Shown piece after piece: positions 3,157-16,678 of a stretch of DNA of 64,000 nucleotides (position 1 is its first letter; the number at the start of each line of letters is the position of its first letter). Position numbers and translations under genes: made by a program. Source of the stretch: a bacterium (GTDB taxonomy: Bacteria > UBA8248); the NCBI GenBank assembly GCA_965199855.1, contig OZ241326.1:2016001-2080000 (forward strand). Reading direction: 5' to 3'. The notes under the pieces were generated by a model, which was not told the origin of the DNA, did no database searches, and saw only the letters and a program-made list of their open reading frames with translations.

Positions 3157-4920
3157 TTGAGCTGGAAAAGTTTTCGCATACGGCTCCTCGGCTGGCTGCT
3201 ACACTTCGACTTCTCCGATGACGGCATCTTCTATTTCACCACCATCATCGTGGGGGCGATCGCCGGCCTCGTCGCCGTCCTCTTTCACCTCGCCCTTGGC
3301 TGGACGCATCTGCTCCTTTTCGGCTCGCACGATCTTTCCGCGATTCACCGGTCCTGGCATTTGGTGGTGCTGATTCCCGCCGGGGGCGCCTTTCTCTCCG
3401 GCCTCTTCCTTCAATACCTCGCGCCCGAGGCGCGGGGCAGCGGCATTCCCCAGACGAAGATCGCCTACGTCGCGCGCAACGGCCACATCGAGAAGCGCGT
3501 GTGGATGGGAAAATTTCTCATCGGAGCGCTCAACATCGGCTCGGGGTCGAGCCTGGGGCGCGAAGGCCCCACCGTGCAGATTTGCGCGGGCGCGGCGAGC
3601 TGGATCGGCGAGACGTTCTCTCTTAAGAGGCAGCGCGTGCAGGCGCTCGTCCCCGTGGGCTGCGCCGCCGCCCTGGCCGCCGCGTTCAACACGCCGATAG
3701 CGGCCGTCACCTTCACGCTCGAGGAACTGGTGGGCGATCTGAACGCGCGGGTGCTCGGCTCCATCGTGTTCGCGGCGGTCTCCGCCTCCGTCGTCTCGCG
3801 CGCCATCCTCGGCAACGAGCCCGTGTTCTCCGTGCCGGCTTACTCGCTGAACAGCCCGGCGGAGCTGCTGCTCTACGCCGTGGTGGGCGTGGTCTGCGCG
3901 CTCACCGGCGTGGCGTTCATCAAGGGACTGCTTTTCACGCGGGCGCGCTGGAAGCGCCTGCGGGGATTTCGGTCGGTTCTCGTCACGGGGCTGGGCGGTC
4001 TGGCGGTCGGAATCATCGGCATCCGGTTTCCCGAAGTTTTCGCGGTGGGCTATCCCGCCGTGAGCAAGGCGCTCACGAACAGCTACGCCCTGCCCCTTCT
4101 CCTCGCCCTGCTGCTGCTCAAGCTCGCCGCCACCATGATCTCCTACGGCACCGGCTCCTCGGGCGGCATCTTCGCGCCCACCCTGTTCCTGGGCGCGATG
4201 GCCGGAGGCGCGGTGGCCTCTCTGGCCGAGATCGCCTTCCCCGGCTTCGCGGCGCATCCGGGGGGATACGCGCTCGTCGGCATGGGCGCGGCGTTCGCGG
4301 CCATCATCCGCGCGCCCATGACCTCGGTGCTCATCATCTTCGAGCTCACGCAGGACTACAACATCATCCTTGCGCTCATGGCGGCCAACGCCATCTCCCT
4401 GGGGCTGGCGAAATACCTGCACCCCGAGCCGATCTACAGCGCGCTCTCCTCGCAGGACGGCGTCGCTCTGCCCGACTACGAGACCGAACACCTCCTGCAC
4501 GAGATTCACGTATCCGACGCCATGACAGGGGAGGTCGTCGCCCTTCCTGCGGACATCACGATAGCGGAGGCGATAGAGCGAACGAGGGGGAGCGAAATAT
4601 CGGGCTTTCCCGTCCTCGACGCGCGCGGAAAGCTCTGCGGCATGGCGAGCAACTACGACTTCTGCCAGGCGCAGGCCGCAGACATCTTGGGTGAGAGCGT
4701 CATGAGGATTGCGAAGAAGAAATACATCATGCACGCTCACCCTGACCAATCGCTCGATTCGGTGATGGCGAAGCTGGGCGACAGGCGCATCTCGCGGCTG
4801 CCCGTCGTGAGCCGGGAAGACCCGACCGAACTGCTGGGCATCATCACCGCTCAGGACGTCATCCACGCCTTCGGCAAGGTATGGCGCGAGCAGGAGCACC
4901 ACCGGCACGATTCCGGCTAG
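3157..4920 (+). CDS. ClC-family chloride/proton antiporter with C-terminal CBS pair
   Basis: GSGIP, GREGPT (gating Glu), FTLEEL, GGIFAP signatures; tandem CBS domains. Confidence 0.92.
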   Translation: MSWKSFRIRLLGWLLHFDFSDDGIFYFTTIIVGAIAGLVAVLFHLALGWTHLLLFGSHDLSAIHRSWHLVVLIPAGGAFLSGLFLQYLAPEARGSGIPQTKIAYVARNGHIEKRVWMGKFLIGALNIGSGSSLGREGPTVQICAGAASWIGETFSLKRQRVQALVPVGCAAALAAAFNTPIAAVTFTLEELVGDLNARVLGSIVFAAVSASVVSRAILGNEPVFSVPAYSLNSPAELLLYAVVGVVCALTGVAFIKGLLFTRARWKRLRGFRSVLVTGLGGLAVGIIGIRFPEVFAVGYPAVSKALTNSYALPLLLALLLLKLAATMISYGTGSSGGIFAPTLFLGAMAGGAVASLAEIAFPGFAAHPGGYALVGMGAAFAAIIRAPMTSVLIIFELTQDYNIILALMAANAISLGLAKYLHPEPIYSALSSQDGVALPDYETEHLLHEIHVSDAMTGEVVALPADITIAEAIERTRGSEISGFPVLDARGKLCGMASNYDFCQAQAADILGESVMRIAKKKYIMHAHPDQSLDSVMAKLGDRRISRLPVVSREDPTELLGIITAQDVIHAFGKVWREQEHHRHDSG

Positions 4921-5910: not shown

Positions 5911-7203
5911 CTAGAAGCTATACTGAATGCCCAGCTGGGCGCGGGTGGCCTCGCCCTCCTGGTCGTCGTTGGTCTCGCGCCAGCCCTTGATGAGCTCCAG
6001 GCCGACCCGCAATTTGGGAGCGGGAGACCACCAGAAGTTGGCGTGGAGCGTCCGGAGCTCCGCATGATCGCCCGCGAACATCTTCTTGGCGCTTTCGTCG
6101 TAGTCGTGCTCGACCCAGCCGTAGTAGAGGCCCGACCCCACGCTGGCGCTCCACTTGTGCGTGAGTCCGAAAAATCCGCCCACCGAACCCACGGCCGTCA
6201 ACTCGTCCTCGTCGTCCAGCGTGGCGGCGGGTCCCCCGCCGATCAGATACCCCGCCAGCCCGCCTTTGCCGATGTTGAAGGTCGCCAGCAACTTGGTGGA
6301 GTCGAGCAGTTTGACGTGCCCGCCGACGTGCAGGCCGTAAATGGACAGATTGTCCTCGGCATCGCCCTCGTTGTAGCGGACTTCTCCCAACATGCCGCTC
6401 ACGTTGACGGCGCCCCAGGAGGGCCGAAAGCGCAGGGCCGCCAGAAAGTTCGGCAGGCGGTCCTGAGAGGACGCATTCTCCTCGCTTTTCCGGATCGTCG
6501 GGCCTCCCGGATCTTCAATCGCGACCTGACCGGTGACGCTCTTCCCCATCGACCAGGTGTAGCGCAGTTGTGACCGTCGGGAGGAGACCACGCCCACCGG
6601 CCCCCCGAAATCGACCGTGTCGGCGTAGGTGTCCTCATCCTGGAAAATCGACCAGTTTCGGCCGGCGAGCACGGGGCCCAGCGAGCCGTAGGCGTGGCGC
6701 AGGCGAAAAGGAGCGCCGCTGTTGTAGTAGAAATCGCCCTCTATCCGGGTTTTCAGGTCGCCCGCGTCCGTCTTCGTCAGGCTGTCGAAGCGAATGCGGG
6801 ACTGCCTGGCGTGAAAGGAGGTTTTCGGCCGATCATCCACGCCTTTCAGCGGAAAATCGCTGTACGCCTCAAAGGAATCGCCCAAATCCGTGTTGAAGTC
6901 GTGGATCGCGTCGAACTTCACGTAGCCGCTGAAGGAGACCGACGTGTTGGTGCCCGGCATTTTCCAGGAACCCGGAAAATCGCCAGTCGCCAGCGCCTTC
7001 TTCGAGTCCTCCGCCAGCTTCTTCTGCGCGGCGTCCATCTTCTTTTCATTGGCTTCCAGCTGCTCGATCCGCTTCATGAGCTTCTGGACCTGCTTCTTCA
7101 GGTCGTCGATTTCGCTCGCCCCGGCCGGCGCCGCGCAAATCGCCAGCGCCGCCGCCAGGCCCAGGATCGCGGCTCCGACGCGACCTTTCCGGCTTCTCTT
7201 CAT
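5911..7203 (-). CDS. DcaP-family trimeric outer-membrane porin with N-terminal coiled coil
   Basis: Signal peptide, coiled coil EIDDLKKQVQKLMKRIEQLE, FSGYVKFD, ARQSRIRF, RLRHAYG, terminal YSF. Confidence 0.8.
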   Translation of the reverse strand: MKRSRKGRVGAAILGLAAALAICAAPAGASEIDDLKKQVQKLMKRIEQLEANEKKMDAAQKKLAEDSKKALATGDFPGSWKMPGTNTSVSFSGYVKFDAIHDFNTDLGDSFEAYSDFPLKGVDDRPKTSFHARQSRIRFDSLTKTDAGDLKTRIEGDFYYNSGAPFRLRHAYGSLGPVLAGRNWSIFQDEDTYADTVDFGGPVGVVSSRRSQLRYTWSMGKSVTGQVAIEDPGGPTIRKSEENASSQDRLPNFLAALRFRPSWGAVNVSGMLGEVRYNEGDAEDNLSIYGLHVGGHVKLLDSTKLLATFNIGKGGLAGYLIGGGPAATLDDEDELTAVGSVGGFFGLTHKWSASVGSGLYYGWVEHDYDESAKKMFAGDHAELRTLHANFWWSPAPKLRVGLELIKGWRETNDDQEGEATRAQLGIQYSF

Positions 7204-7870
7204 CCTCTCTACCCCCCTCGTGAGAAAATCGAATACAGCGGACGGACATCGAATCCGGGAAAACCTATCACAAGCCGAAGAAGCGCGCAAGGACGGCGGC
7301 CATTCCCGCAGGAAGAGGAGACGGCCCGCCCCGGACGACGGGCTTGACGGAACGCTCCATTACCCCCCTGTCGCGCAGTGAACCCCGCTGATGGGCATGG
7401 TTCAGGGAGCGCGGAACTTGATTTTGACGAACTCGGCCGCCCGAAGCGCGTTCAGAAACGGCAACGCGATCGCCGCCGCGCCGAGTCCCATAGCTCCCGC
7501 CTTATTCATTCGTCCCCCCCCGCCCCCGGCGAGAAAATCTTTTCCGCGCCGGCCGGCTGCCTCTTCTTCATTTTCCCGCTCTCCCCCGTCCGGGAGGCCG
7601 GACGGCGCGGCCCTGAAAAGTGAAGCGCGAAAATCATTCCTGACGAGGCTGGAATATAAGAGGCGTTCATTACCGGCGTCTTGCGATTCGGTTAAATTGC
7701 CGCTTCGGTTTCGTTTCCTTCAAGTTTCGGGAATTCCCCGTCCCATGAGCGTTTTGCGCGAGGGCAGCCTCTCGCTCCCGGGAAGCGGCGGAGTGAAGAT
7801 GTCCCGCGCGCGCCCTCGGCGAAGACGCTTCCGTGCCCTCCCTGAGCCGGCGGTTCGCGCGCCGGGCGCC

Positions 7871-8740
7871 TCAGGACGCGCCCAGCGCCTTGAGGATGGT
7901 CCGTCGCACCAGGACGGGCGTTATCTCTCTCCTGTAGTCGCCGCTCGCGCGAATGTCGCTCAGAGGATCGAGGTCGTCCAGCGCGCCCGAAAGCGCGGCG
8001 TCGATGTTCTCGCGGTTCAGCTTCACGCCGCCGAGCACCTCCTCCGCCGCCGTGAGGCGTCTGAACACCGCCTCCACGCCGCCCAGGCCGATTCTCACCT
8101 CTTTCGCCGTCTCGCCGTCCTCTTCGGTGAGCGCGGCGACGGAGACGGACGCGCAGGGCTTGTCCTCCTTCGAGCGCGTGGTGAAGCGCGTGCAGGCCGC
8201 GCGGAAGCCGTCGGGCAGCGGATCGACCTCGATTTCGCACAAGAGCTCCCCTTCCTCCAGGGCGCACTCGTAATATCCCGTCCAGAACTCCGTCGCGGGA
8301 ATCACCCGCTCCCCGCCGTCCGCCTTCCGGGTCTTCATGCGCGCCTCATAAACCAGAAACGCGCCGGGCGGATCGGACGCGGGCTCGGCGAAGCAGAGGT
8401 TTCCGCCCACCGTCCCCTGGTTCCGGATGCGAATCGTCGCCACGTTGCGGAAAATTTCCGCGAGCAGCGGGAAGCGCTCCCGAACGATCGGGGAAGTCTC
8501 GATCCTGCGGTGCACCGTCATCGCCCCGATGCGGATGCCGCCGCTTTCGCTCTCTGCGATGAAGTCGAGCTCCCCCGCCGCCCCCGCGATGTCTATCAGC
8601 ACTTCGGGCTCATAGACGCGCGACTTCATGAGGATAGAGAGGGCGACGCCGCCGGCATACACTTTTCCGTCGTCGCCGTGCTCCTTCATGGCGGCGAGCG
8701 TCTCCTCCACGCTGTTCGCGGGCAGATGTCGAAAAGCCAT
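7871..8740 (-). CDS. Xanthine dehydrogenase/CoxM-family FAD-binding subunit
   Basis: AGG motif, IRNQGTVGGNL, DIRASGDYRR. Confidence 0.9.
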   Translation of the reverse strand: MAFRHLPANSVEETLAAMKEHGDDGKVYAGGVALSILMKSRVYEPEVLIDIAGAAGELDFIAESESGGIRIGAMTVHRRIETSPIVRERFPLLAEIFRNVATIRIRNQGTVGGNLCFAEPASDPPGAFLVYEARMKTRKADGGERVIPATEFWTGYYECALEEGELLCEIEVDPLPDGFRAACTRFTTRSKEDKPCASVSVAALTEEDGETAKEVRIGLGGVEAVFRRLTAAEEVLGGVKLNRENIDAALSGALDDLDPLSDIRASGDYRREITPVLVRRTILKALGAS

Positions 8741-8760
8741 TTTCTCTCCCCCTCTCCTCG

Positions 8761-11046
8761 CTACGCGCCGTTTTTCTGCTTCAGGGCGGCGAGTATCTTC
8801 TCCGGCGTTATCGGCAGCGACGTAATCCGCACGCCGACGGCGTCATGCACCGCGTTCGATATCGCGGCCGAGGTTCCCAGCTGCGCCATCTCTCCGAGCC
8901 CCTTCGCGCCGTAGGGCCCCGAGGGGTTTTCCGTTTCGATGAGCACGGCTTCGAGCTCGGGCAGATCCTGGGTCGTGGGCAGCTTGTAGTCGAGCCAGTT
9001 CGCGTTCACCGGCTGGCCGTCCTCGACCTGAAAATCCTCCGTCATGGCGTAGCCCACGCCCATGAGCGCGCCGCCGTCGAGCTGGCCCTGCGCCCCCGCG
9101 GGATTCACGATGGTTCCCACGTCGTTCGCGCTGACGATGCGCAGCACCTCGAAGGCGCCGGTTTCGGGGTCCACCTCCACCTCCGCCACCTTGGCGCCGT
9201 AGGCGTAGGCCGCGGACCAGTTGCCGTACCCCGTCACGGGGTCGGGCGCCTCGCTCGGCGAATCATACGAAGACGCCGTATAGACGGCCTCGCTGCCCTG
9301 CTTGTCGTAGATCTTCATGTAGGCTTCGGCGTGGGTCACCTGCCGCTCGGGAGAGCTCGCGACGAAAATTCTGCCCTCTCGCGCGTCCAGGTCGTTCGGG
9401 CTGCACTCGAGCAGCTCCGCCGCGCCCTTGAGGAGCATGTTCTTCGCCTCGAGCGACGCCAGGCGCGTGGCCTGGCCGTCGATGGTCGTCGTCCGGCTCC
9501 CGCGCACCCCCCATCCGTAGGGGTTCACCGAAGTGTCCCCGTTGATGATGCGGACGTCCTCCACCCGGACGCCCAGCGTCTCGGCGCAGATTTGCGCGAG
9601 GGTGGTGTCCGATCCGTTGCCCATCTCGATGGTGCCGGAGAGGAGCTGCACGGTGCCGTCCTTGTTCATCTTGATGAACGCGCCGGCCGTCTCGGGGCCC
9701 ATCGCGCGCGCGCCGGTGAAGTGCACCGCCGCGCTCAGCCCGCAACCGCGCTTCTTTCCGCCGCCGCTCTCCCGCTTCTCGCGCCAGGGCGCACGCTTGA
9801 CGGCCTCCCGGACGCACTCGGAGACGCCACAGCTCGTAATCTTCGCGCCGATGATGGTGGTGTCGCCCTTTCGCACGAAGTTCTTCACCCGGAACTCCGC
9901 CGGGTCCATGCCGATTTCCTCGGCGTGCTTCTCCATCGCGATCTCGGAGCCGAAGGAATAGCCGCCATTGCCCACCCCGCGCATCGCGCCGCCCGGCGGC
10001 ACGTTGGTATAGACCACGTCGGCGTGATGGCGGTAGGCCCTGTAGTTGTAGAGGCTCCCCCCCATGTGCGCCGTGATGGAGCCCACCACCGGGCCGTAGT
10101 CGGAGTAGCCGCCGTTTTCCACCACCATCTTCACGTCGCGCGCCAGGAGCATCCCCTCCTTGTCCGTGGCGATTCGGAAGGTGTGGAACTGCTTGGTGCG
10201 GTGCGTGCCGAGGAGAAACTCCTCCTCGCGCGTGTAATAGAATTTGACGGGGACGCCCAGCTTCTTCGCCGCGATGATGGAGAGGAAGTCGATGTTGAAC
10301 TTGCTCGTCGCCTTTCCGCCGAATCCCCCGCCCACGTAGTTCGTGACCACGCGAATCTTCGCCTCGGGAATCTTGAGGCATTTGGCGAAATACTGGCTCG
10401 AGAGGCTCGGGCACTGCGAGGAGTTGTAGACCGTCACTTCGCCCTTCTGCGACCATTCGGCGATGGAGACGTGCGCCTCGAAGGAGCCGTGCATCTGGCG
10501 CGAGGAGGAAGTGGAGAGCTCGCTTACGTGGTGGGCCTCGTCGAACATCCTGTCCACCTCGCCGAACTCCATGCGCTTCGTGAAGGCGACGTTGTTCGGG
10601 TGCGACTCATGGAGAACCGGCGCGCCCTCCCGCATGGCCTCGAAGGGATCGAAGACGGCGGGAAGCTCCTCGTAGTCCACATCGATGAGGTCGAGCGCCT
10701 CCCGGGCGGCGTCCTCGGAGGTCGCCACGACGGCCGCCACCGAGTCGCCTACGAAGCGAACCTTGTCCGTGGCGAGAGGACGCTGATCGTAGCAGACGGG
10801 AACCACGCCCCAGACCACGTCGTCGGGTATGTCCCTGGCCGTCATCACGAGCTTGACGCCGGGGAGCCTCTCGGCGCGGCCGGCGTCGATGCTCTTGATG
10901 CGCGCGTGGGGAATGGGGCTTCCCAGCAACTTGCCGTGAAGCATCCTGGGCAGGAGAAGGTCGAGGGTGTACATGGCGCGGCCCGTCACTTTTTCCGGCC
11001 CATCGACGCGCGGAACGCTTTTCCCGACGTATGCTAGATCTGTCAT
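8761..11046 (-). CDS. Xanthine-oxidase-family molybdopterin-binding large subunit (4-hydroxybenzoyl-CoA reductase alpha-like)
   Basis: VGKSVPRVDGPEKVTGRA, GGGFGGK, VYTNVPPGGAMRGVG, GPYGAKGLGE; GGAGGAG RBS before ATG 11046. Confidence 0.9.
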   Translation of the reverse strand: MTDLAYVGKSVPRVDGPEKVTGRAMYTLDLLLPRMLHGKLLGSPIPHARIKSIDAGRAERLPGVKLVMTARDIPDDVVWGVVPVCYDQRPLATDKVRFVGDSVAAVVATSEDAAREALDLIDVDYEELPAVFDPFEAMREGAPVLHESHPNNVAFTKRMEFGEVDRMFDEAHHVSELSTSSSRQMHGSFEAHVSIAEWSQKGEVTVYNSSQCPSLSSQYFAKCLKIPEAKIRVVTNYVGGGFGGKATSKFNIDFLSIIAAKKLGVPVKFYYTREEEFLLGTHRTKQFHTFRIATDKEGMLLARDVKMVVENGGYSDYGPVVGSITAHMGGSLYNYRAYRHHADVVYTNVPPGGAMRGVGNGGYSFGSEIAMEKHAEEIGMDPAEFRVKNFVRKGDTTIIGAKITSCGVSECVREAVKRAPWREKRESGGGKKRGCGLSAAVHFTGARAMGPETAGAFIKMNKDGTVQLLSGTIEMGNGSDTTLAQICAETLGVRVEDVRIINGDTSVNPYGWGVRGSRTTTIDGQATRLASLEAKNMLLKGAAELLECSPNDLDAREGRIFVASSPERQVTHAEAYMKIYDKQGSEAVYTASSYDSPSEAPDPVTGYGNWSAAYAYGAKVAEVEVDPETGAFEVLRIVSANDVGTIVNPAGAQGQLDGGALMGVGYAMTEDFQVEDGQPVNANWLDYKLPTTQDLPELEAVLIETENPSGPYGAKGLGEMAQLGTSAAISNAVHDAVGVRITSLPITPEKILAALKQKNGA

Positions 11047-11379
11047 GGATGCTCCTCCCTTGCGCGCGGCGGACGGGGCGAACGCCGCTAGACGCTTTTT
11101 CCCAGATTCGACATTCCAAGATGAATTCACAACCGCATCCGCCTTCCACGGATTCGACGAAATGCGGCGCTTTCATCCTCTCGCTTGATGATTTAGCGAT
11201 TATAGCAACTCGAAAGGCGAAACAAAACCCCAGAATACGGGCGAGGTCAACCGCCGGAGCGGACGCGCGGGAGGATTCCGCTTTTCTCCCCTCGCGCATG
11301 TGATGTATCATCCGCCACATTAGAAACTGGACGATAAGTCTTCCAGCCATTCCGAAATCATCAAGATCGGAGCGACAAA

Positions 11380-12126
11380 ATGCCGATTCGTTTTGACTTC
11401 AAGGACAGAAAGGTAATTCTCACGGGCGCGGCCGGCGCCATGGGAAGCCGCATCCTGCAAGGCTATCTGGAGGCCGGGGCCAGGGTGTTCGCCACCGACA
11501 GGGAAGGCCCCGCCTTCGACGCGATTGAGGGATCCTCCGACCAGCTCTTCAAGCTCCCCTGCGACCTGACCGACCTGGCCGCTCTCCGCGCCGCCATGCG
11601 CGAGGCGCTGGAGTGGCTGGGCGGCTGCGACGTGCTGGCCAACGTGGCGGGCTACATGCCGATTCGCCCGCCGCTCGAGCTCGAGGAGGAGGACTGGGAC
11701 TCCGTGCTGGCCGTGAATCTGCTGGCGCCCTATTTCTGCATTCAGGAAACCATCGAGGCGCTGAAGGCCTCGAGCGCCGGGCGCATCATCAGCTTCGCCT
11801 CCATCGCGGGCAAGATGGGGGGCATCGGCCCGAACCTCACCTACGCCGCCGCCAAGGCGGGCCTGCTCGCCATGACCTTCAACCTCGCGCGCGAACTCGC
11901 CAGAACGGGCGTGACGATCAACACCATCCAGCCGGGCCCGGCGGATACCGGCCTGCACTTCCAGTCGCCGCCCGAGATGCTGGAGAACGCCGCGAACGCC
12001 CACCCCATGGGCAGGCTCACGACGCCCGAGGACGTGTGGCAGACCGTCCTGTTCCTCTCGAGCGAGGAAGCCGCCCACATCAACGGCGAGGCCGTGGACG
12101 TGAACGGCGGCTTCTGGACGGACTAG
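11380..12126 (+). CDS. SDR family oxidoreductase
   Basis: TGAAGAMG, YAAAK catalytic motif, NGEAVDVNGG. Confidence 0.9.
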   Translation: MPIRFDFKDRKVILTGAAGAMGSRILQGYLEAGARVFATDREGPAFDAIEGSSDQLFKLPCDLTDLAALRAAMREALEWLGGCDVLANVAGYMPIRPPLELEEEDWDSVLAVNLLAPYFCIQETIEALKASSAGRIISFASIAGKMGGIGPNLTYAAAKAGLLAMTFNLARELARTGVTINTIQPGPADTGLHFQSPPEMLENAANAHPMGRLTTPEDVWQTVLFLSSEEAAHINGEAVDVNGGFWTD

Positions 12127-12142
12127 ACAAAGGAGCGCAGCG

Positions 12143-12988
12143 ATGCCGGCCGAAAACCCGAAAGGATACGCGAACCCGGATCTGCTCTGGTCGCCCGCGC
12201 AGCTGAAAGAGCGCATGGACGACCCGAATCTGAGAATCATCGACGCGCGCCCGGGCGAGCGCTATGCGATGGGGCACATCCCCGGGGCGCGCCACTTCAA
12301 CGTCTACGGCGTGAACAGCGACGATTCCGGCGAGGCGGCGCTCAGGAATTTTTTCAGCATGTGGGCGTTCCTGCTGGGAAACAGGGGGGTGGCGTTCGAG
12401 AACGCGATCCTCTTCTACGACGACATCGTCGGCAACACGAGCGCGCGCGGGTTCTGGATGCTCGAGCTTTTCGGGCACAAGGACGTCCACGTGCTCGACG
12501 GCGGCTACGGCGCCTGGGAGCGGGCAGGCTTCGAGACGACGCGCGACGCCGAGGTTCCCCGGCCCGCCGCCTTCGAGATGGCGTTCGAGCCGCACCGGCT
12601 GGCCACGCGGGAGGACGTGTCGTGCGCCATCGAGGACGACAACCACGCGCTGCTCGACACGCGCTCGATAGAGGAATGGGAGGCGAGGCGCGTTCTGGCA
12701 AAGCGCGGCGGCATCATCCCCGGCGCCGTCTGGCAGGAATGGCTGGCGCACCTGACGCCCGAGGGCGAGATGAAACCCGCCGACGAGCTGCGGGCGCAAT
12801 TCGAGGCGCTGGGGATTACGCCCGAAAAAGAGGTGACCGCCTACTGACAGACGGGCTACCGCGCGGCGCACGGTTATTTCGCTCTCAGGCTGCTGGACTA
12901 TCCAAAGGTGAGAAACTACATGAGTTCATGGAAGGAGTGGGGCAACCGGGAGGACACGCCCATCGCCCAGGCACCGAGCGGGAACTGA
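12143..12988 (+). CDS. Two-domain rhodanese/sulfurtransferase (SseA/TST type), probable selenoprotein (Sec235, TGA 12845-12847), 281 aa
   Basis: GHIPGA, VLDGG, LLDTRS, GIIPGA. Reading through the TGA gives the active loop Y-U-QTGYRAA and the C-terminal signature VRNYMSSWKEWG, ending at TGA 12986-12988. Confidence 0.88.
12858..12874 (+). promoter_or_regulatory. Candidate bacterial SECIS hairpin of the rhodanese
   Basis: ACCG(C)GC-GGC-GC(A)CGGT stem-loop; the G-starting apical loop begins 17 nt after the UGA. Confidence 0.55.
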
Positions 12989-13125
12989 GAGGAAGCGACT
13001 GGAAAATTCTTCCGGGAAAATGTTGGAACAGGCAGACCCGATGGGAAGCCATCGAACATTCACGGCTCGGCACATCTCTTTCGCCGAGGCCACTTTCATT
13101 CATAATGAACTTCAGGAGGTTCGCC

Positions 13126-14142
13126 ATGAAAAGAAGTCTCGTTCGCATCATTCTGTCCGCCGGCCTCGCCTGCGGCCTCTCGGCGGCTGGCTTCGCCTCG
13201 GCGGCGCCCACCCTTCGCCTCGGCGCGGCCAGCAACACCGGCGGACTGATCGTCTTCGCCGGCGTGGATAAAGGCTTCTTCGCCAAAAACGGGCTGGACG
13301 CGAAGGTCGTCGTGCGCAACACGGGCGCCCAGCTCACCAAGTCCCTCAAGGCCGGGCAGATCGACTTCGCCCCCGCCGCGTTCACCAACCTGCCGGCGGC
13401 GCTCGAGCGCGGCATCAGGGTGCGCGGCGTCGTGGGCTACGTTGGTGGCTCCTACAAGAAATCCACCACCGACGAGATGGTGGGCATCGCCGCGCGTCCC
13501 GGCTCGGGCATCAAGAGCATCAAGGACCTCAAGGGCAAGAAGATCGGCGCGACCTTCGGCTCCACCGGCGACCTCTACCTCCGCACCCTGCTGAACAAAA
13601 ACGGCATCGGCGTGGGCGGCGTCCGCCGCATCAACGTGCGCCCGCCGAGCCTCGTCTCCCTGTTCGATTCCGGCGGCGTGGACGCCATGGTGGCGTGGGA
13701 GCCCTACCTCACCCGCATGACCGACAAGGTGAAGGGCTCCTCCATCGTCTCGCGGGGCGGCGACTACGTCTGCTTCTGCGCCGGGATGCACGGCGTGCCG
13801 GAGCGCGTCTATCAAGACAAGAAGGCGACCCAGGCGTTCGTCAACGGCATGTCCGAGGCGGCCGCCTTCGTGCGCGACCCCAAGAACCGGGACGAGGTGG
13901 CCAGAATCGGCGCCCGCTACGTTCGCGGCATGGACGCCGCCCTCATCAAGCGCACCATCAAATGGTGGACCTACGATCCGCGCCTGGGCGAGAACACGCT
14001 CAAGGCCTTCAATTTCTCGGTGAAGCAGCTCATCGCCCAGAAGAAGATGAAGCGTCCTTACGACCCCCAAAAATACTTCGACTTCCAGTTCATCAACCGG
14101 ACGATGAAAGAGCGGCCGGAATGGTTCAAGGACCTGAACTAG
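13126..14142 (+). CDS. ABC transporter substrate-binding protein, NitT/TauT (SsuA/THI5-like) family
   Basis: AGGAGG RBS, signal peptide, KGFFAKNGLD, IKSIKDLKGKKIG, VDAMVAWEP. Confidence 0.88.
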   Translation: MKRSLVRIILSAGLACGLSAAGFASAAPTLRLGAASNTGGLIVFAGVDKGFFAKNGLDAKVVVRNTGAQLTKSLKAGQIDFAPAAFTNLPAALERGIRVRGVVGYVGGSYKKSTTDEMVGIAARPGSGIKSIKDLKGKKIGATFGSTGDLYLRTLLNKNGIGVGGVRRINVRPPSLVSLFDSGGVDAMVAWEPYLTRMTDKVKGSSIVSRGGDYVCFCAGMHGVPERVYQDKKATQAFVNGMSEAAAFVRDPKNRDEVARIGARYVRGMDAALIKRTIKWWTYDPRLGENTLKAFNFSVKQLIAQKKMKRPYDPQKYFDFQFINRTMKERPEWFKDLN

Positions 14143-14160: not shown

Positions 14161-14199
14161 CGCATCCGCGCCCCGGCCGTCGCCGGGGCGCGGATTGCG
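14161..14199 (+). promoter_or_regulatory. Intercistronic hairpin after the SBP gene (mRNA-stabilising or attenuating)
   Basis: ATCCGCGCCCCGGC-CGTC-GCCGGGGCGCGGAT, perfect 14-bp stem, no U-tract. Confidence 0.6.
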
Positions 14200-14221
14200 C
14201 CTGGAAAGGAAGCGGGAAGCC

Positions 14222-15010
14222 ATGCCGGCCAAACTGATCGTAGAGGGACTCTCGCACCACTACCCGGACGAATACACGGGAGAGGACGTTCACGCCCTCG
14301 AACAAGTGAGCCTCTCCGTGGAGGACGGCGAGTTCTCGGCCGTCGTCGGCCCGAGCGGTTGCGGAAAGACCACGCTGCTCAACATCCTCGCGGGCCTGCT
14401 GCCCCACACCGAGGGCAGCGTGCGGGTGGACGGCCGGGAGGTGAAGGGGCCGGGGCCGGACCGCGGCGTAGTCTTTCAGGAGCACGCGATTCTCCCATGG
14501 CGCTCCGTTGCGAGGAACATCGGCCACGGCCTCGAAATCCAGGGCGTCCCGAAAAACGAGAGAGAAAGAAGGGCTCAGGAGTTCATCGCCCTGGTCGGGC
14601 TGTCAGGCTTTGAAGACCGCTATCCGCACGAGCTCTCGGGCGGCATGAAGCAGCGTTGCGCGCTCGCGCGCACGCTGTGCGCCAACCCCGTCGTGATGCT
14701 GATGGACGAGCCCTTCGCCGCCGTGGACGCGCAGACGAGAATCACCCTGCAGGAGGAGCTGAACCGCATCGCCATCGCCACGAGAAAGACGATTCTCTTC
14801 ATCACGCACAACGTGGACGAGGCCGCGTTTCTCGGAGATCGGTGCTTCATCTTCTCGCGCCGCCCGGGGAAGCTGAAGGCCGCCGTGAAAATCGAGGTTC
14901 CGCGCGAGAAGCGCATCTGGAAAGAGCTGCTCTCCGAGAAGGCTTATACCGAGCCGCGCGATGAAATTCTCCGCCTCGTGCGCGAAGAGGTGTTCGATGA
15001 GGAGGAGTAG
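14222..15010 (+). CDS. NitT/TauT ABC transporter ATP-binding protein
   Basis: GPSGCGKT Walker A, LSGGMKQR, LMDEPF, ITH. Confidence 0.95.
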   Translation: MPAKLIVEGLSHHYPDEYTGEDVHALEQVSLSVEDGEFSAVVGPSGCGKTTLLNILAGLLPHTEGSVRVDGREVKGPGPDRGVVFQEHAILPWRSVARNIGHGLEIQGVPKNERERRAQEFIALVGLSGFEDRYPHELSGGMKQRCALARTLCANPVVMLMDEPFAAVDAQTRITLQEELNRIAIATRKTILFITHNVDEAAFLGDRCFIFSRRPGKLKAAVKIEVPREKRIWKELLSEKAYTEPRDEILRLVREEVFDEEE

Positions 15011-15821
15011 CGGAGCTGCCGCCGGAGGAGCGGCGCGCGCCGGGCGATGGAGAAAATTCGTCAAGGGAGGCGGCGTCGAGCTGCTGCTCCTCATACTGGG
15101 CATTCTGATCCTGTGGTCCGTCATCTCGCGGATCATTCCGAATCCGGACCGCTATCTCCCCTCTCCGCTTTCCGTCGTCCTCTCCTCCTACGACGTCATC
15201 TGGAAGGGTTTATTGCCAAACTACATCGGGCAGACGCTGTGGCGACTCGTCGTCGGCAGCGTCATCGGCCTGGGGTTGGGCATTCCGTTCGGGATCGCTC
15301 TGGGTCTCAACCGCACGGTGTCGGACATGTTCTATCCCATCATGAATTTCTTCCAGTCCATCTCCGGCATCGCCATCCTCCCCATCATCGTCGTCTGGTG
15401 GGGCAACAGCGAAAAGACCGTGTTCGCCGTCATCCTCTACACCTGCTTCTTCCCGATCACGTTCAACGTCCTGACGGGCGTGCGCAGCACCCCGATGATC
15501 TTGGTGAACGCCCTGCGCACCCTGGGCGCCTCGCGTCTGCGGATCGTGAAAGACGTGCTCATCCCGAGCGCCATGCCCCACATCGCCACCGGCGCGAGGC
15601 TGGGCATCGGCTACGCATGGCGCGCGGTCATCGCGGGCGAGATGCTCGCCGGCAGACGCGGCCTGGGCTGGATGATCTTCACATCCCAGGACGCGGACCT
15701 CACCGCCCAGGTGATTCTCGGAATGCTGCTGATCGGCGCCATCTGGATCATGATCGACCGCTTCGCCCTGCGCCCCATCGAAGCGGACACCATTCAGCGA
15801 TGGGGACTCGTGCAACGATGA
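14997..15821 (+). CDS. NitT/TauT ABC transporter permease 1
   Basis: Hydrophobic; EAA-like NALRTLGAS, IPSAMPHI, AGEMLAGRRGLG; start approximate. Confidence 0.88.
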   Translation: MRRSSGAAAGGAARAGRWRKFVKGGGVELLLLILGILILWSVISRIIPNPDRYLPSPLSVVLSSYDVIWKGLLPNYIGQTLWRLVVGSVIGLGLGIPFGIALGLNRTVSDMFYPIMNFFQSISGIAILPIIVVWWGNSEKTVFAVILYTCFFPITFNVLTGVRSTPMILVNALRTLGASRLRIVKDVLIPSAMPHIATGARLGIGYAWRAVIAGEMLAGRRGLGWMIFTSQDADLTAQVILGMLLIGAIWIMIDRFALRPIEADTIQRWGLVQR

Positions 15822-16678
15822 GCGTTCTCCAGGCGGCGGCCATCGGCCTGCAAAAGCGCTTCGGACGCCAGAGGCTGCGCAAAATCATGCTGGGGGCCGT
15901 CCCCTTCATCGTCCTGCTCGTTCTGTGGCGGATGAACACCGCGCTCGAATGGCTCCCGCCTGTCTTCATTCCGCCCATCGCATCGATTCGGGAGGCGATA
16001 TACACGCTCTCCGAGGGCTGCGCGGGCCTGGGCGGCGCGCTTTCCATGCAGTATGAGTGCATGTTCACCAATCATATTTTCTCGAGCCTGGGCCGCGTGG
16101 GCCTGAGCCTCGTCATCGGCATTCCCTTCGGCATCGCCTTCGGGGTGCTGGCGGGCATGAGCCGCCGCTTCGCCCACGCGCTCGAGCCCATCGGCGTGTT
16201 CGCCAACGCCATCTCGGGCATCGCCTGGGTGCCCCTGGCCATCGTCTGGTTCGGAACCGGCTGGCTCACGACGCTGTTCATCCTGCTGAACACCGTTTTC
16301 TGGCTCGTATTCTTCAATACGCTTCTGGGGGTGCGGGGGGTGCCGCGGGCGTATGAGAATTCCGTCCTGACGCTCGGCGGCGGAAGATGGGCCGTCATCT
16401 CCCAGGTCTACATCCCCGGCGCCCTGCCCAGCATCGTCCCCGGCATCCGCATGAGCATGGGCTTCGGATGGCGCGCCCTCATCGCCGCGGAGATGATAGG
16501 CGGCGACAGCGGCCTTGGCTTCATGATCTTCGTCTCCGCCGCCGAATACAAGATAGAGGAAGTGTTTCTCGGCGTTCTCGTCATCGCCGTCATCTGGATG
16601 ATCACCGACAGGCTCCTTCTCATTCCTCTTGAGAAGTGGACCATTCAGCGCTGGGGCATGGTATGGAGGCCGTCCTAG
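15818..16678 (+). CDS. NitT/TauT ABC transporter permease 2
   Basis: ATGA overlap with permease 1; PGALPSI, AAEMIGGDSGLG. Confidence 0.88.
   Translation: MSVLQAAAIGLQKRFGRQRLRKIMLGAVPFIVLLVLWRMNTALEWLPPVFIPPIASIREAIYTLSEGCAGLGGALSMQYECMFTNHIFSSLGRVGLSLVIGIPFGIAFGVLAGMSRRFAHALEPIGVFANAISGIAWVPLAIVWFGTGWLTTLFILLNTVFWLVFFNTLLGVRGVPRAYENSVLTLGGGRWAVISQVYIPGALPSIVPGIRMSMGFGWRALIAAEMIGGDSGLGFMIFVSAAEYKIEEVFLGVLVIAVIWMITDRLLLIPLEKWTIQRWGMVWRPS

Follow-up and report, generated by a model that had tools for sequence, protein, structure and literature searches.

A rhodanese gene with a predicted selenocysteine codon at the catalytic position in a bacterium of the UBA8248 lineage

Rhodaneses built from two domains in tandem carry their catalytic cysteine (Cys) as the first residue of a six-residue loop between the central strand and the helix of the C-terminal domain, and their N-terminal domain is inactive, with no Cys at the equivalent position. 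Selenocysteine (Sec, U) forms of bacterial sulfurtransferases have been predicted in earlier surveys, as the initial annotation of the locus described here stated. The passages describing the Sargasso Sea survey name a 'rhodanese-related sulfurtransferase' (COG2897), represented by 3 sequences, as one of 15 new selenoprotein families (PMC1088965), those describing the Global Ocean Sampling (GOS) survey give 8 Sec versus 3,367 Cys sequences of the cd01449 type (PMC2398784), and a family list in PMC13188914 includes the rhodanese-related family with Pfam domain PF00581 and the Sec motif UxxG. According to a passage on the BSepDB database, the ten bacteria richest in selenoproteins include genomes labelled Nitrospinota or Nitrospinae (PMC13326102). 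Here we analyse a 64,000-nucleotide (nt) stretch of a bacterial genome (contig OZ241326.1, positions 2,016,001 to 2,080,000; hereafter the window), in which positions 12143-12988 (+) very probably constitute one gene for a cytoplasmic tandem-domain rhodanese of the RhdA/SseA (COG2897) type, with Sec replacing the catalytic Cys of the C-terminal domain and with its UGA recoded via a hairpin. Our literature search yielded neither a biochemical characterisation of any Sec rhodanese nor a description of this gene in the present lineage, although supplementary tables may list the gene or the lineage.

The open reading frame (ORF) called in this genome, which has 67% GC, spans 12143-12847 (+), encodes 234 amino acids (aa) and ends ...EKEVTAY at a TGA (12845-12847). 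Translation confirms the initial annotation in that the frame continues beyond this TGA for 46 further codons (QTGYRAAHGY...APSGN; 12848-12985) and then reaches a second TGA at 12986-12988, which both the sequence and the translation identify as the true stop codon. With the first TGA translated as U, the full coding sequence (12143-12988, +) yields 281 residues with Sec at residue 235, and a Shine-Dalgarno-like AAGGAG, read from the sequence, lies at 12130-12135 (+), 7 nt before the ATG. The read-through protein contains two stretches that match the Pfam Rhodanese domain (PF00581; E 5.4e-33, 113.9 bits), and phmmer searches against the PDB align its residues 9-274 with RhdA of A. vinelandii (1e0c, E 2.1e-45) and its residues 8-277 with the rhodanese of T. 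thermophilus (1uar, E 9.4e-42). In both alignments the TGA stands opposite the catalytic Cys, which in 1e0c opens the CQTHHR loop, and the proposal that this codon sits where the catalytic Cys of the second rhodanese domain belongs is thereby borne out. In the N-terminal domain, ...LFYDDIVG... stands opposite ...VVYDDEGG... of RhdA, with an Asp where the catalytic residue would sit. The sole Cys of the protein, C161, is not conserved, and the closest relative of the window, L017, has R there.

For the AlphaFold2 (AF2) model of the read-through product, 21 Cys forms and 7 Sec forms, the latter with C substituted for U, were combined into an alignment of 28 rows. The model has a mean predicted local distance difference test score (pLDDT) of 91.3 and a predicted template modelling score (pTM) of 0.91. 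Residue 235 is placed between a strand (230-234) and a helix (239-250), and DSSP assignment of the model shows that the 46-codon tail, after completing the active-site loop with QTGYR, contributes helix 239-250, strand 256-259 and helix 263-267. The top Foldseek matches of the model are tandem rhodaneses, with template modelling (TM) scores of 0.87/0.88 for 1uar and 0.83/0.87 for 1e0c. Gene callers and public records give 234-aa products, as the initial annotation anticipated (exactly 234 aa in 25 of the 120 matches listed, named sulfurtransferase or rhodanese-like), and these calls, together with the imperfect hairpin of the window copy described below, would favour a rival reading in which the TGA is a real stop, the product is either that of a pseudogene or a genuine 234-residue protein, and the downstream frame is a decaying remnant. 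Such a protein, however, would lose the active-site loop and the three secondary-structure elements of the tail and would be inactive.

Conservation of the codon and of the tail bears on the same question. Orthologues were sought in 51 genomes of the phylum, and an orthologue with exactly one in-frame TGA was recovered from 32 genomes, the window's included, belonging to genera g1, g2, g3 and g9; the protein matches extend across the TGA as far as residues 274-282. All 32 have TGA at codon 235, never TAA or TAG, and no indels. A remnant would be expected to gain stops, frameshifts and non-synonymous changes, but the tail frame is open in 32/32 orthologues, and the ratio of summed non-synonymous to summed synonymous divergence (dN/dS; Nei-Gojobori, 496 pairs) is 0.160 for codons 236-277 versus 0.147 for codons 1-234. 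Between the window and L017 the downstream dN/dS is 0.059, at a dS of 0.54. Since the dN/dS of the tail matches that of the upstream part, the tail evolves as coding sequence, under the purifying selection that had been proposed as a check, and a decaying pseudogene is ruled out. Moreover, the in-frame TGA is fixed while the true stops of the same genes drift, with TAG in 15, TGA in 9 and TAA in 8 of the orthologues. Taken together, a real stop at 12845-12847 appears extremely improbable, and we return to the reading of this codon as Sec. In one relative, a second and apparently fragmented Sec-form copy is present (G032:C3:37083-37920, -), which is 90% identical over residues 66-279 and contains a TGA and a TAA, with residues 1-80 covered by a separate piece.

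Beyond the Sec-form genera, Cys is the common residue at this position, as expected by the initial annotation for homologues aligned to the TGA. Three orthologues from other genera of the same family (G039, G040 and G041) have TGC or TGT at codon 235, and more distant homologues likewise have one of these two codons. Among the best 80 loci from reference genomes across all phyla, the codon is TGA in 18, TGC in 50 and TGT in 12, that is, a Cys codon in 62 of the 80. All but one of the 18 TGA loci (17/18) come from the present lineage, in records labelled Nitrospinota, Tectomicrobia or just 'bacterium'.

Faulty sequencing or assembly of an original TGC or TGT codon is a general possibility, but the TGA occurs in 32 independently assembled genomes. 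The assembly was also checked against Logan contigs (not raw reads) of runs from three other studies, X3, X4 and X11, whose contigs show no difference at 12845-12847 or at 12862, a position within the hairpin. The X3 contig is 28 kb long with 9 differences from the window and the X4 contig 1.5 kb long with 11 differences, so that TGA recurs in contigs that differ from the window elsewhere; in X11 the codon is covered by short contigs only, at a depth of 3-4. X1 shows no differences at all from the window, of which it may be the source. An error at this codon is, on these grounds, a negligible prospect.

The genome encodes the machinery required for Sec insertion, the presence of which had been named as a check on the prediction. 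SelA (481 bits), the winged-helix domain of SelB (76 bits), tRNA-Sec (79 bits) and SelD (344 bits) were all found, and selA, selB, tRNA-Sec and selD all score above curated cut-offs. The selD gene (G000:C1:2985603-2986568, -) has an in-frame TGA of its own at C1:2986538, at the position of the catalytic Cys. SelA is present in 49 of the 51 phylum genomes, and the two misses are assemblies that are 79% and 67% complete. It is also present in all three carriers of the Cys form, and the difference between Sec and Cys forms is thus a switch at the level of the gene and not a loss of the Sec trait.

A hairpin with a loop starting with G had been noted 17 nt downstream of the TGA, and the loop was located at that distance. 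This hairpin, of the type of a selenocysteine insertion sequence (SECIS), lies inside the coding sequence at 12858-12874 (+), where 12858-12864 pairs with 12868-12874 around a GGC loop (12865-12867); it begins 10 nt after the UGA and its loop begins 17 nt after the UGA. The GGC loop and the 17-nt spacing are kept in the window and in all 32 orthologues, and the stem pairs at 7/7 positions in 27 of the 32 Sec-form orthologues and at 6/7 in the remaining 5, of which three have A-C at the basal pair and two (the window and L017) have C·A at the fifth pair. In six Cys-form genes, by comparison, 1-4 of the 7 stem pairs are possible. Codon usage follows the same pattern: at the nine amino acid-invariant codons 236-244, third-position entropy is 0.15, versus 0.81 at 100 other such codons (Mann-Whitney p 1.7e-5, a value that overstates the case because the sequences are related), and the 12-codon stretch with the lowest entropy in the whole gene starts at codon 233. 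The two forms also differ in protein sequence here, TAY-U-QTGYRAAHG in the Sec form versus IPY-C-QTGYRSAHA in the Cys form, and the codons of Ala241 and Gly244 are made of stem nucleotides. The published model of the bacterial SECIS (bSECIS), as a passage in PMC13188914 gives it, sets an upper stem of 4-16 bp, a distance of 16-37 nt from UGA to loop and a minimum free energy of -7.5 kcal/mol or lower. The consensus of the clade fits all four bSECIS constraints, with a 3-nt loop starting with GG, a 7-bp stem, 17-nt spacing and -9.7 kcal/mol for the 17-nt hairpin. At the selD gene of this genome the architecture is the same, with a 6-bp hairpin capped by a GGA triloop 11 nt after the UGA. Joint conservation of TGA, tail and hairpin in 32/32 orthologues goes beyond what chance would give.

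Conservation and selection show translation of the codon without specifying the residue, and in principle near-cognate decoding or an altered code could place a standard amino acid there, be it Trp, Cys or Gly. A code in which TGA is a sense codon is at odds with the use of TGA as the terminal stop of the window gene and of 8 other orthologues. The complete Sec machinery of the genome, the location of the codon where homologues have a redox-active Cys, which is a typical Sec site, and a hairpin that fits the SelB-type model of the literature and is similar to its counterpart at selD all argue further for Sec, and we judge insertion of a standard amino acid very unlikely. Insertion of Sec at the UGA, binding of SelB to the hairpin and sulfurtransferase chemistry are nevertheless all predictions.

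Several observations weigh against the interpretation of this locus as a Sec-encoding rhodanese gene with a SECIS-type hairpin. The hairpin of the window is weakened by a C12862·A12870 mismatch where the other 30 orthologues pair U-A, which arises because codon 240 is CGC instead of CGT. As a consequence the window copy consists of 2 bp, the C·A mismatch and 4 bp, fails a test for a contiguous stem, and has a free energy of -5.8 kcal/mol alone and of -7.5 kcal/mol with a lower stem, which is exactly the threshold of the model. The fold of 12845-12910 is no better than that of shuffled sequences (z = 0.64; 145 of 200 shuffles fold as well), a result set aside as evidence in either direction, and there is no Rfam match in 12700-13100 at E up to 10, although bacterial SECIS elements of this type seem to lie outside Rfam, so that this blank would be uninformative. 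Among sampled TGAs of the genome (39,999), a fitting hairpin of at least 7 bp follows 9.6%, and one of at least 4 bp follows 70%. The SECIS-like pattern is thus common in a genome with this GC content and by itself poor evidence, and the argument is therefore one of conservation and of contrast with the Cys forms. Likewise, no compensatory double changes were found in the hairpin among the orthologues, because the hairpin hardly varies, and the case for the structure accordingly draws on the same conservation and contrast. It should be noted that the 32 genomes are relatives, and that their counts represent one origin followed by retention and not independent events. With respect to function, the best NCBIfam equivalog, 3-mercaptopyruvate sulfurtransferase (NF008557), scores 132.1 bits against a cut-off of 250, which makes the protein a relative and not a member, and the sulfurtransferase chemistry is predicted from homology. 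As for the mismatch itself, the window and L017 share it and yet their tail stays under purifying selection, which suggests that the weakened hairpin still works.

To place the Sec forms relative to the Cys forms, a maximum-likelihood tree was reconstructed from 52 proteins, comprising the 32 Sec forms, in which X stood for Sec, 6 Cys forms from the phylum and 14 other Cys forms hand-picked from full-length matches among the 120 listed. All Sec forms fall into one clade (100/100) nested among Cys forms; its sister is a Cys group consisting of P0005, L046 and P0014 (91/80), and the other Cys forms lie outside. This topology fits a single change from Cys to Sec in this bacterial family, followed by retention across four genera, and a passage in PMC1794560 describes such a change and subsequent retention as a general trend. 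The Cys orthologues of the same family (G039, G040 and G041; P0005, P0014, P0015 and P0016) have the same length as the Sec form and are 63-73% identical to it. They differ in having TGC at codon 235, in forming only 3-4 of the 7 stem pairs, and in carrying Ser and Ala where the Sec form has Ala241 and Gly244. A Cys paralogue with 48% identity and no internal stop is encoded in the same genome as the window (G000:C1:370319-371194, +) and is also found in many relatives. In addition, a locus labelled Latescibacterota (L143; TGA at L143:3185-3187) is 47% identical, with TGA at the catalytic position, a conserved in-frame tail and SelA in its genome; no clear SECIS-like hairpin was seen after this TGA. 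L143 may represent an independent switch from Cys to Sec at the same residue.

Under the Sec interpretation, the UGA at 12845-12847 would be decoded by Sec-tRNA(Sec) brought by SelB, which would be recruited by the G+C-rich GGC-triloop hairpin at 12858-12874, and the ribosome would then go on to complete U-Q-T-G-Y-R, the active-site loop, along with the final helix-strand-helix of the domain. If the enzyme works as Cys rhodaneses do, its selenolate may attack a donor of sulfane sulfur (thiosulfate, or a persulfide of a protein or of low molecular weight), carry the sulfur as Sec-Se-S(-) and pass it to a thiophilic acceptor. The protein has no conserved second Cys, which makes disulfide exchange with a resolving cysteine (UxxC-type) unlikely and favours carrier chemistry instead. 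The function of a 'sulfur/selenium transferase', as proposed in the initial annotation, is likewise a prediction.

The most constant neighbour of the rhodanese gene encodes a FabG-like short-chain dehydrogenase/reductase (SDR; 11380-12126, +; Pfam adh_short_C2, 1.7e-47). The SDR gene ends 16 nt before the rhodanese gene and is immediately upstream in 32/32 Sec-form loci, and the gap between the two contains no promoter-like or terminator-like site; the arrangement indicates that the SDR and rhodanese genes are probably co-transcribed. Among the three Cys orthologues G039, G040 and G041, the SDR neighbour is shared by two, immediately upstream in locus L048 and about 780 nt upstream in L046. 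Beside Cys homologues of other phyla it is not found, the 62 Cys-form loci giving only two weak SDR matches. Searches of NCBIfam and the PDB with the SDR returned generic FabG-like matches only, below equivalog cut-offs, and gave no hint of a substrate.

Downstream of the rhodanese gene lies an ATP-binding cassette (ABC) transporter of the SsuA/Tau family on the same strand, composed of a binding protein (13126-14142, +), an ATPase (14195-15010, +) and two tandem permeases extending to 16678 (+). A long ORF at 15047-16678 shares sequence, in a different frame, with the ORF of the first permease (14961-15821); given this overlap, the second permease probably starts downstream of 15821. Within the flanks covered, 21 of the 32 Sec loci have the transporter; L055, L056 and L063, whose flanks are long, lack it. 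Upstream of the SDR gene and divergent from it is a molybdenum hydroxylase resembling xanthine dehydrogenase (XDH) and 4-hydroxybenzoyl-CoA reductase, with a molybdenum (Mo) subunit at 8761-11130 (-) and a flavin adenine dinucleotide (FAD) subunit at 7871-8740 (-). Both the ABC transporter and the Mo hydroxylase were considered as functional partners and set aside, neither being constant enough to assign a pathway. The Mo cluster is flanked by a DcaP/porin-like outer-membrane protein (5911-7290, -) and a CLC chloride channel with CBS domains (3157-4920, +), and this gene order is kept in several relatives.

These neighbours bear on a further possibility, namely that the protein is a true selenoprotein but serves selenium trafficking, forming a perselenide-type adduct and passing Se to SelD, or S or Se to the neighbouring molybdenum hydroxylase. 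Such a role can be envisaged since Se is bound by Cys rhodanese in vitro, and the passage of PMC8538045 that treats this question describes Cys rhodanese and 3-mercaptopyruvate sulfurtransferase as Se-binding proteins debated as Se delivery proteins, but the same passage calls the physiological relevance of rhodanese to Se delivery unclear. The genome has a Sec-containing selD, but the rhodanese gene is about 1 Mb from selD, selA and selB. Of the 9 Sec-form loci examined with long flanks, 6 have the XDH-family Mo/FAD cluster (7871-11130, -) and 3 lack it, so that its adjacency may be plain synteny among relatives. A trafficking role seems unlikely. A more elaborate version, to which we attach little weight, is that the Sec rhodanese and its obligate SDR would form a dedicated chalcogen-trafficking module of a lineage rich in selenoproteins, in which the selenolate would hand over Se (as Se-Se) or S (as Se-S), the recipient being either SelD or the sulfido/selenido ligand of the divergent Mo hydroxylase; if true, this would be the first selenoprotein for Se or S delivery rather than redox catalysis. 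We retain the reading of the protein as a Sec rhodanese with sulfur-carrier chemistry predicted by homology.

For annotation, the consequence is that what public records of this lineage present as a 234-residue, catalytically dead 'sulfurtransferase' would actually be a 281-residue selenoenzyme. The lineage also offers a clean natural pair, in that close Sec and Cys orthologues (63-73% identical) occur in genomes that all keep the Sec machinery, and since this enzyme class cycles through a persulfide, comparing them could reveal the benefit of selenium in the transfer of sulfane sulfur. The gene further illustrates how a SECIS in a coding region dictates protein sequence, with Ala241 and Gly244 specified by stem codons. 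Nothing here would be unexpected to a specialist, and the result is mainly a correction of annotation in a family predicted since 2005; the additions are modest and consist of one origin of the Sec form and its retention, the influence of the SECIS on the protein sequence, the weakened hairpin in this genome, an obligate SDR neighbour and a possible Sec form in a second phylum.

In comparison with characterised tandem rhodaneses, 1e0c and 1uar are the best matches in both sequence and fold, with the same domain order as the window protein, and RhdA likewise has an Asp at the catalytic-equivalent spot of the N-terminal domain. The active-site loop is C-Q-T-H-H-R in RhdA and U-Q-T-G-Y-R here, differing in Cys versus Sec and at positions 4 and 5. 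Identity to 1e0c and 1uar is only about 31-34% (Foldseek), and substrates are not transferable from them with confidence. Other Sec rhodaneses, namely NF041203 'rhodanese_LYCAU' and further COG0607 proteins, share the rhodanese fold with a Sec near the active site, but they are single-domain proteins with a CxU motif, whereas the protein described here has two domains and UxxG; its score against NF041203 is 30.3 bits versus a cut-off of 115, and it is not a member. The closest agreement is with the rhodanese-related Sec family: in the passages that describe it, this family has the PF00581 domain, is of the SseA/COG2897 type, has Sec in place of the catalytic Cys within U-x-x-G (U-Q-T-G here, residues 235-238), has a small apical loop with G downstream of the UGA, and has widespread Cys homologues, all of which are seen at this locus. 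Those passages do not mention Sec fixed across four genera of one lineage or pairing with an SDR, both of which are seen here. It is well supported that the gene encodes a new member of the UxxG rhodanese-related family predicted since 2005, a placement made by domain, motif and family description.

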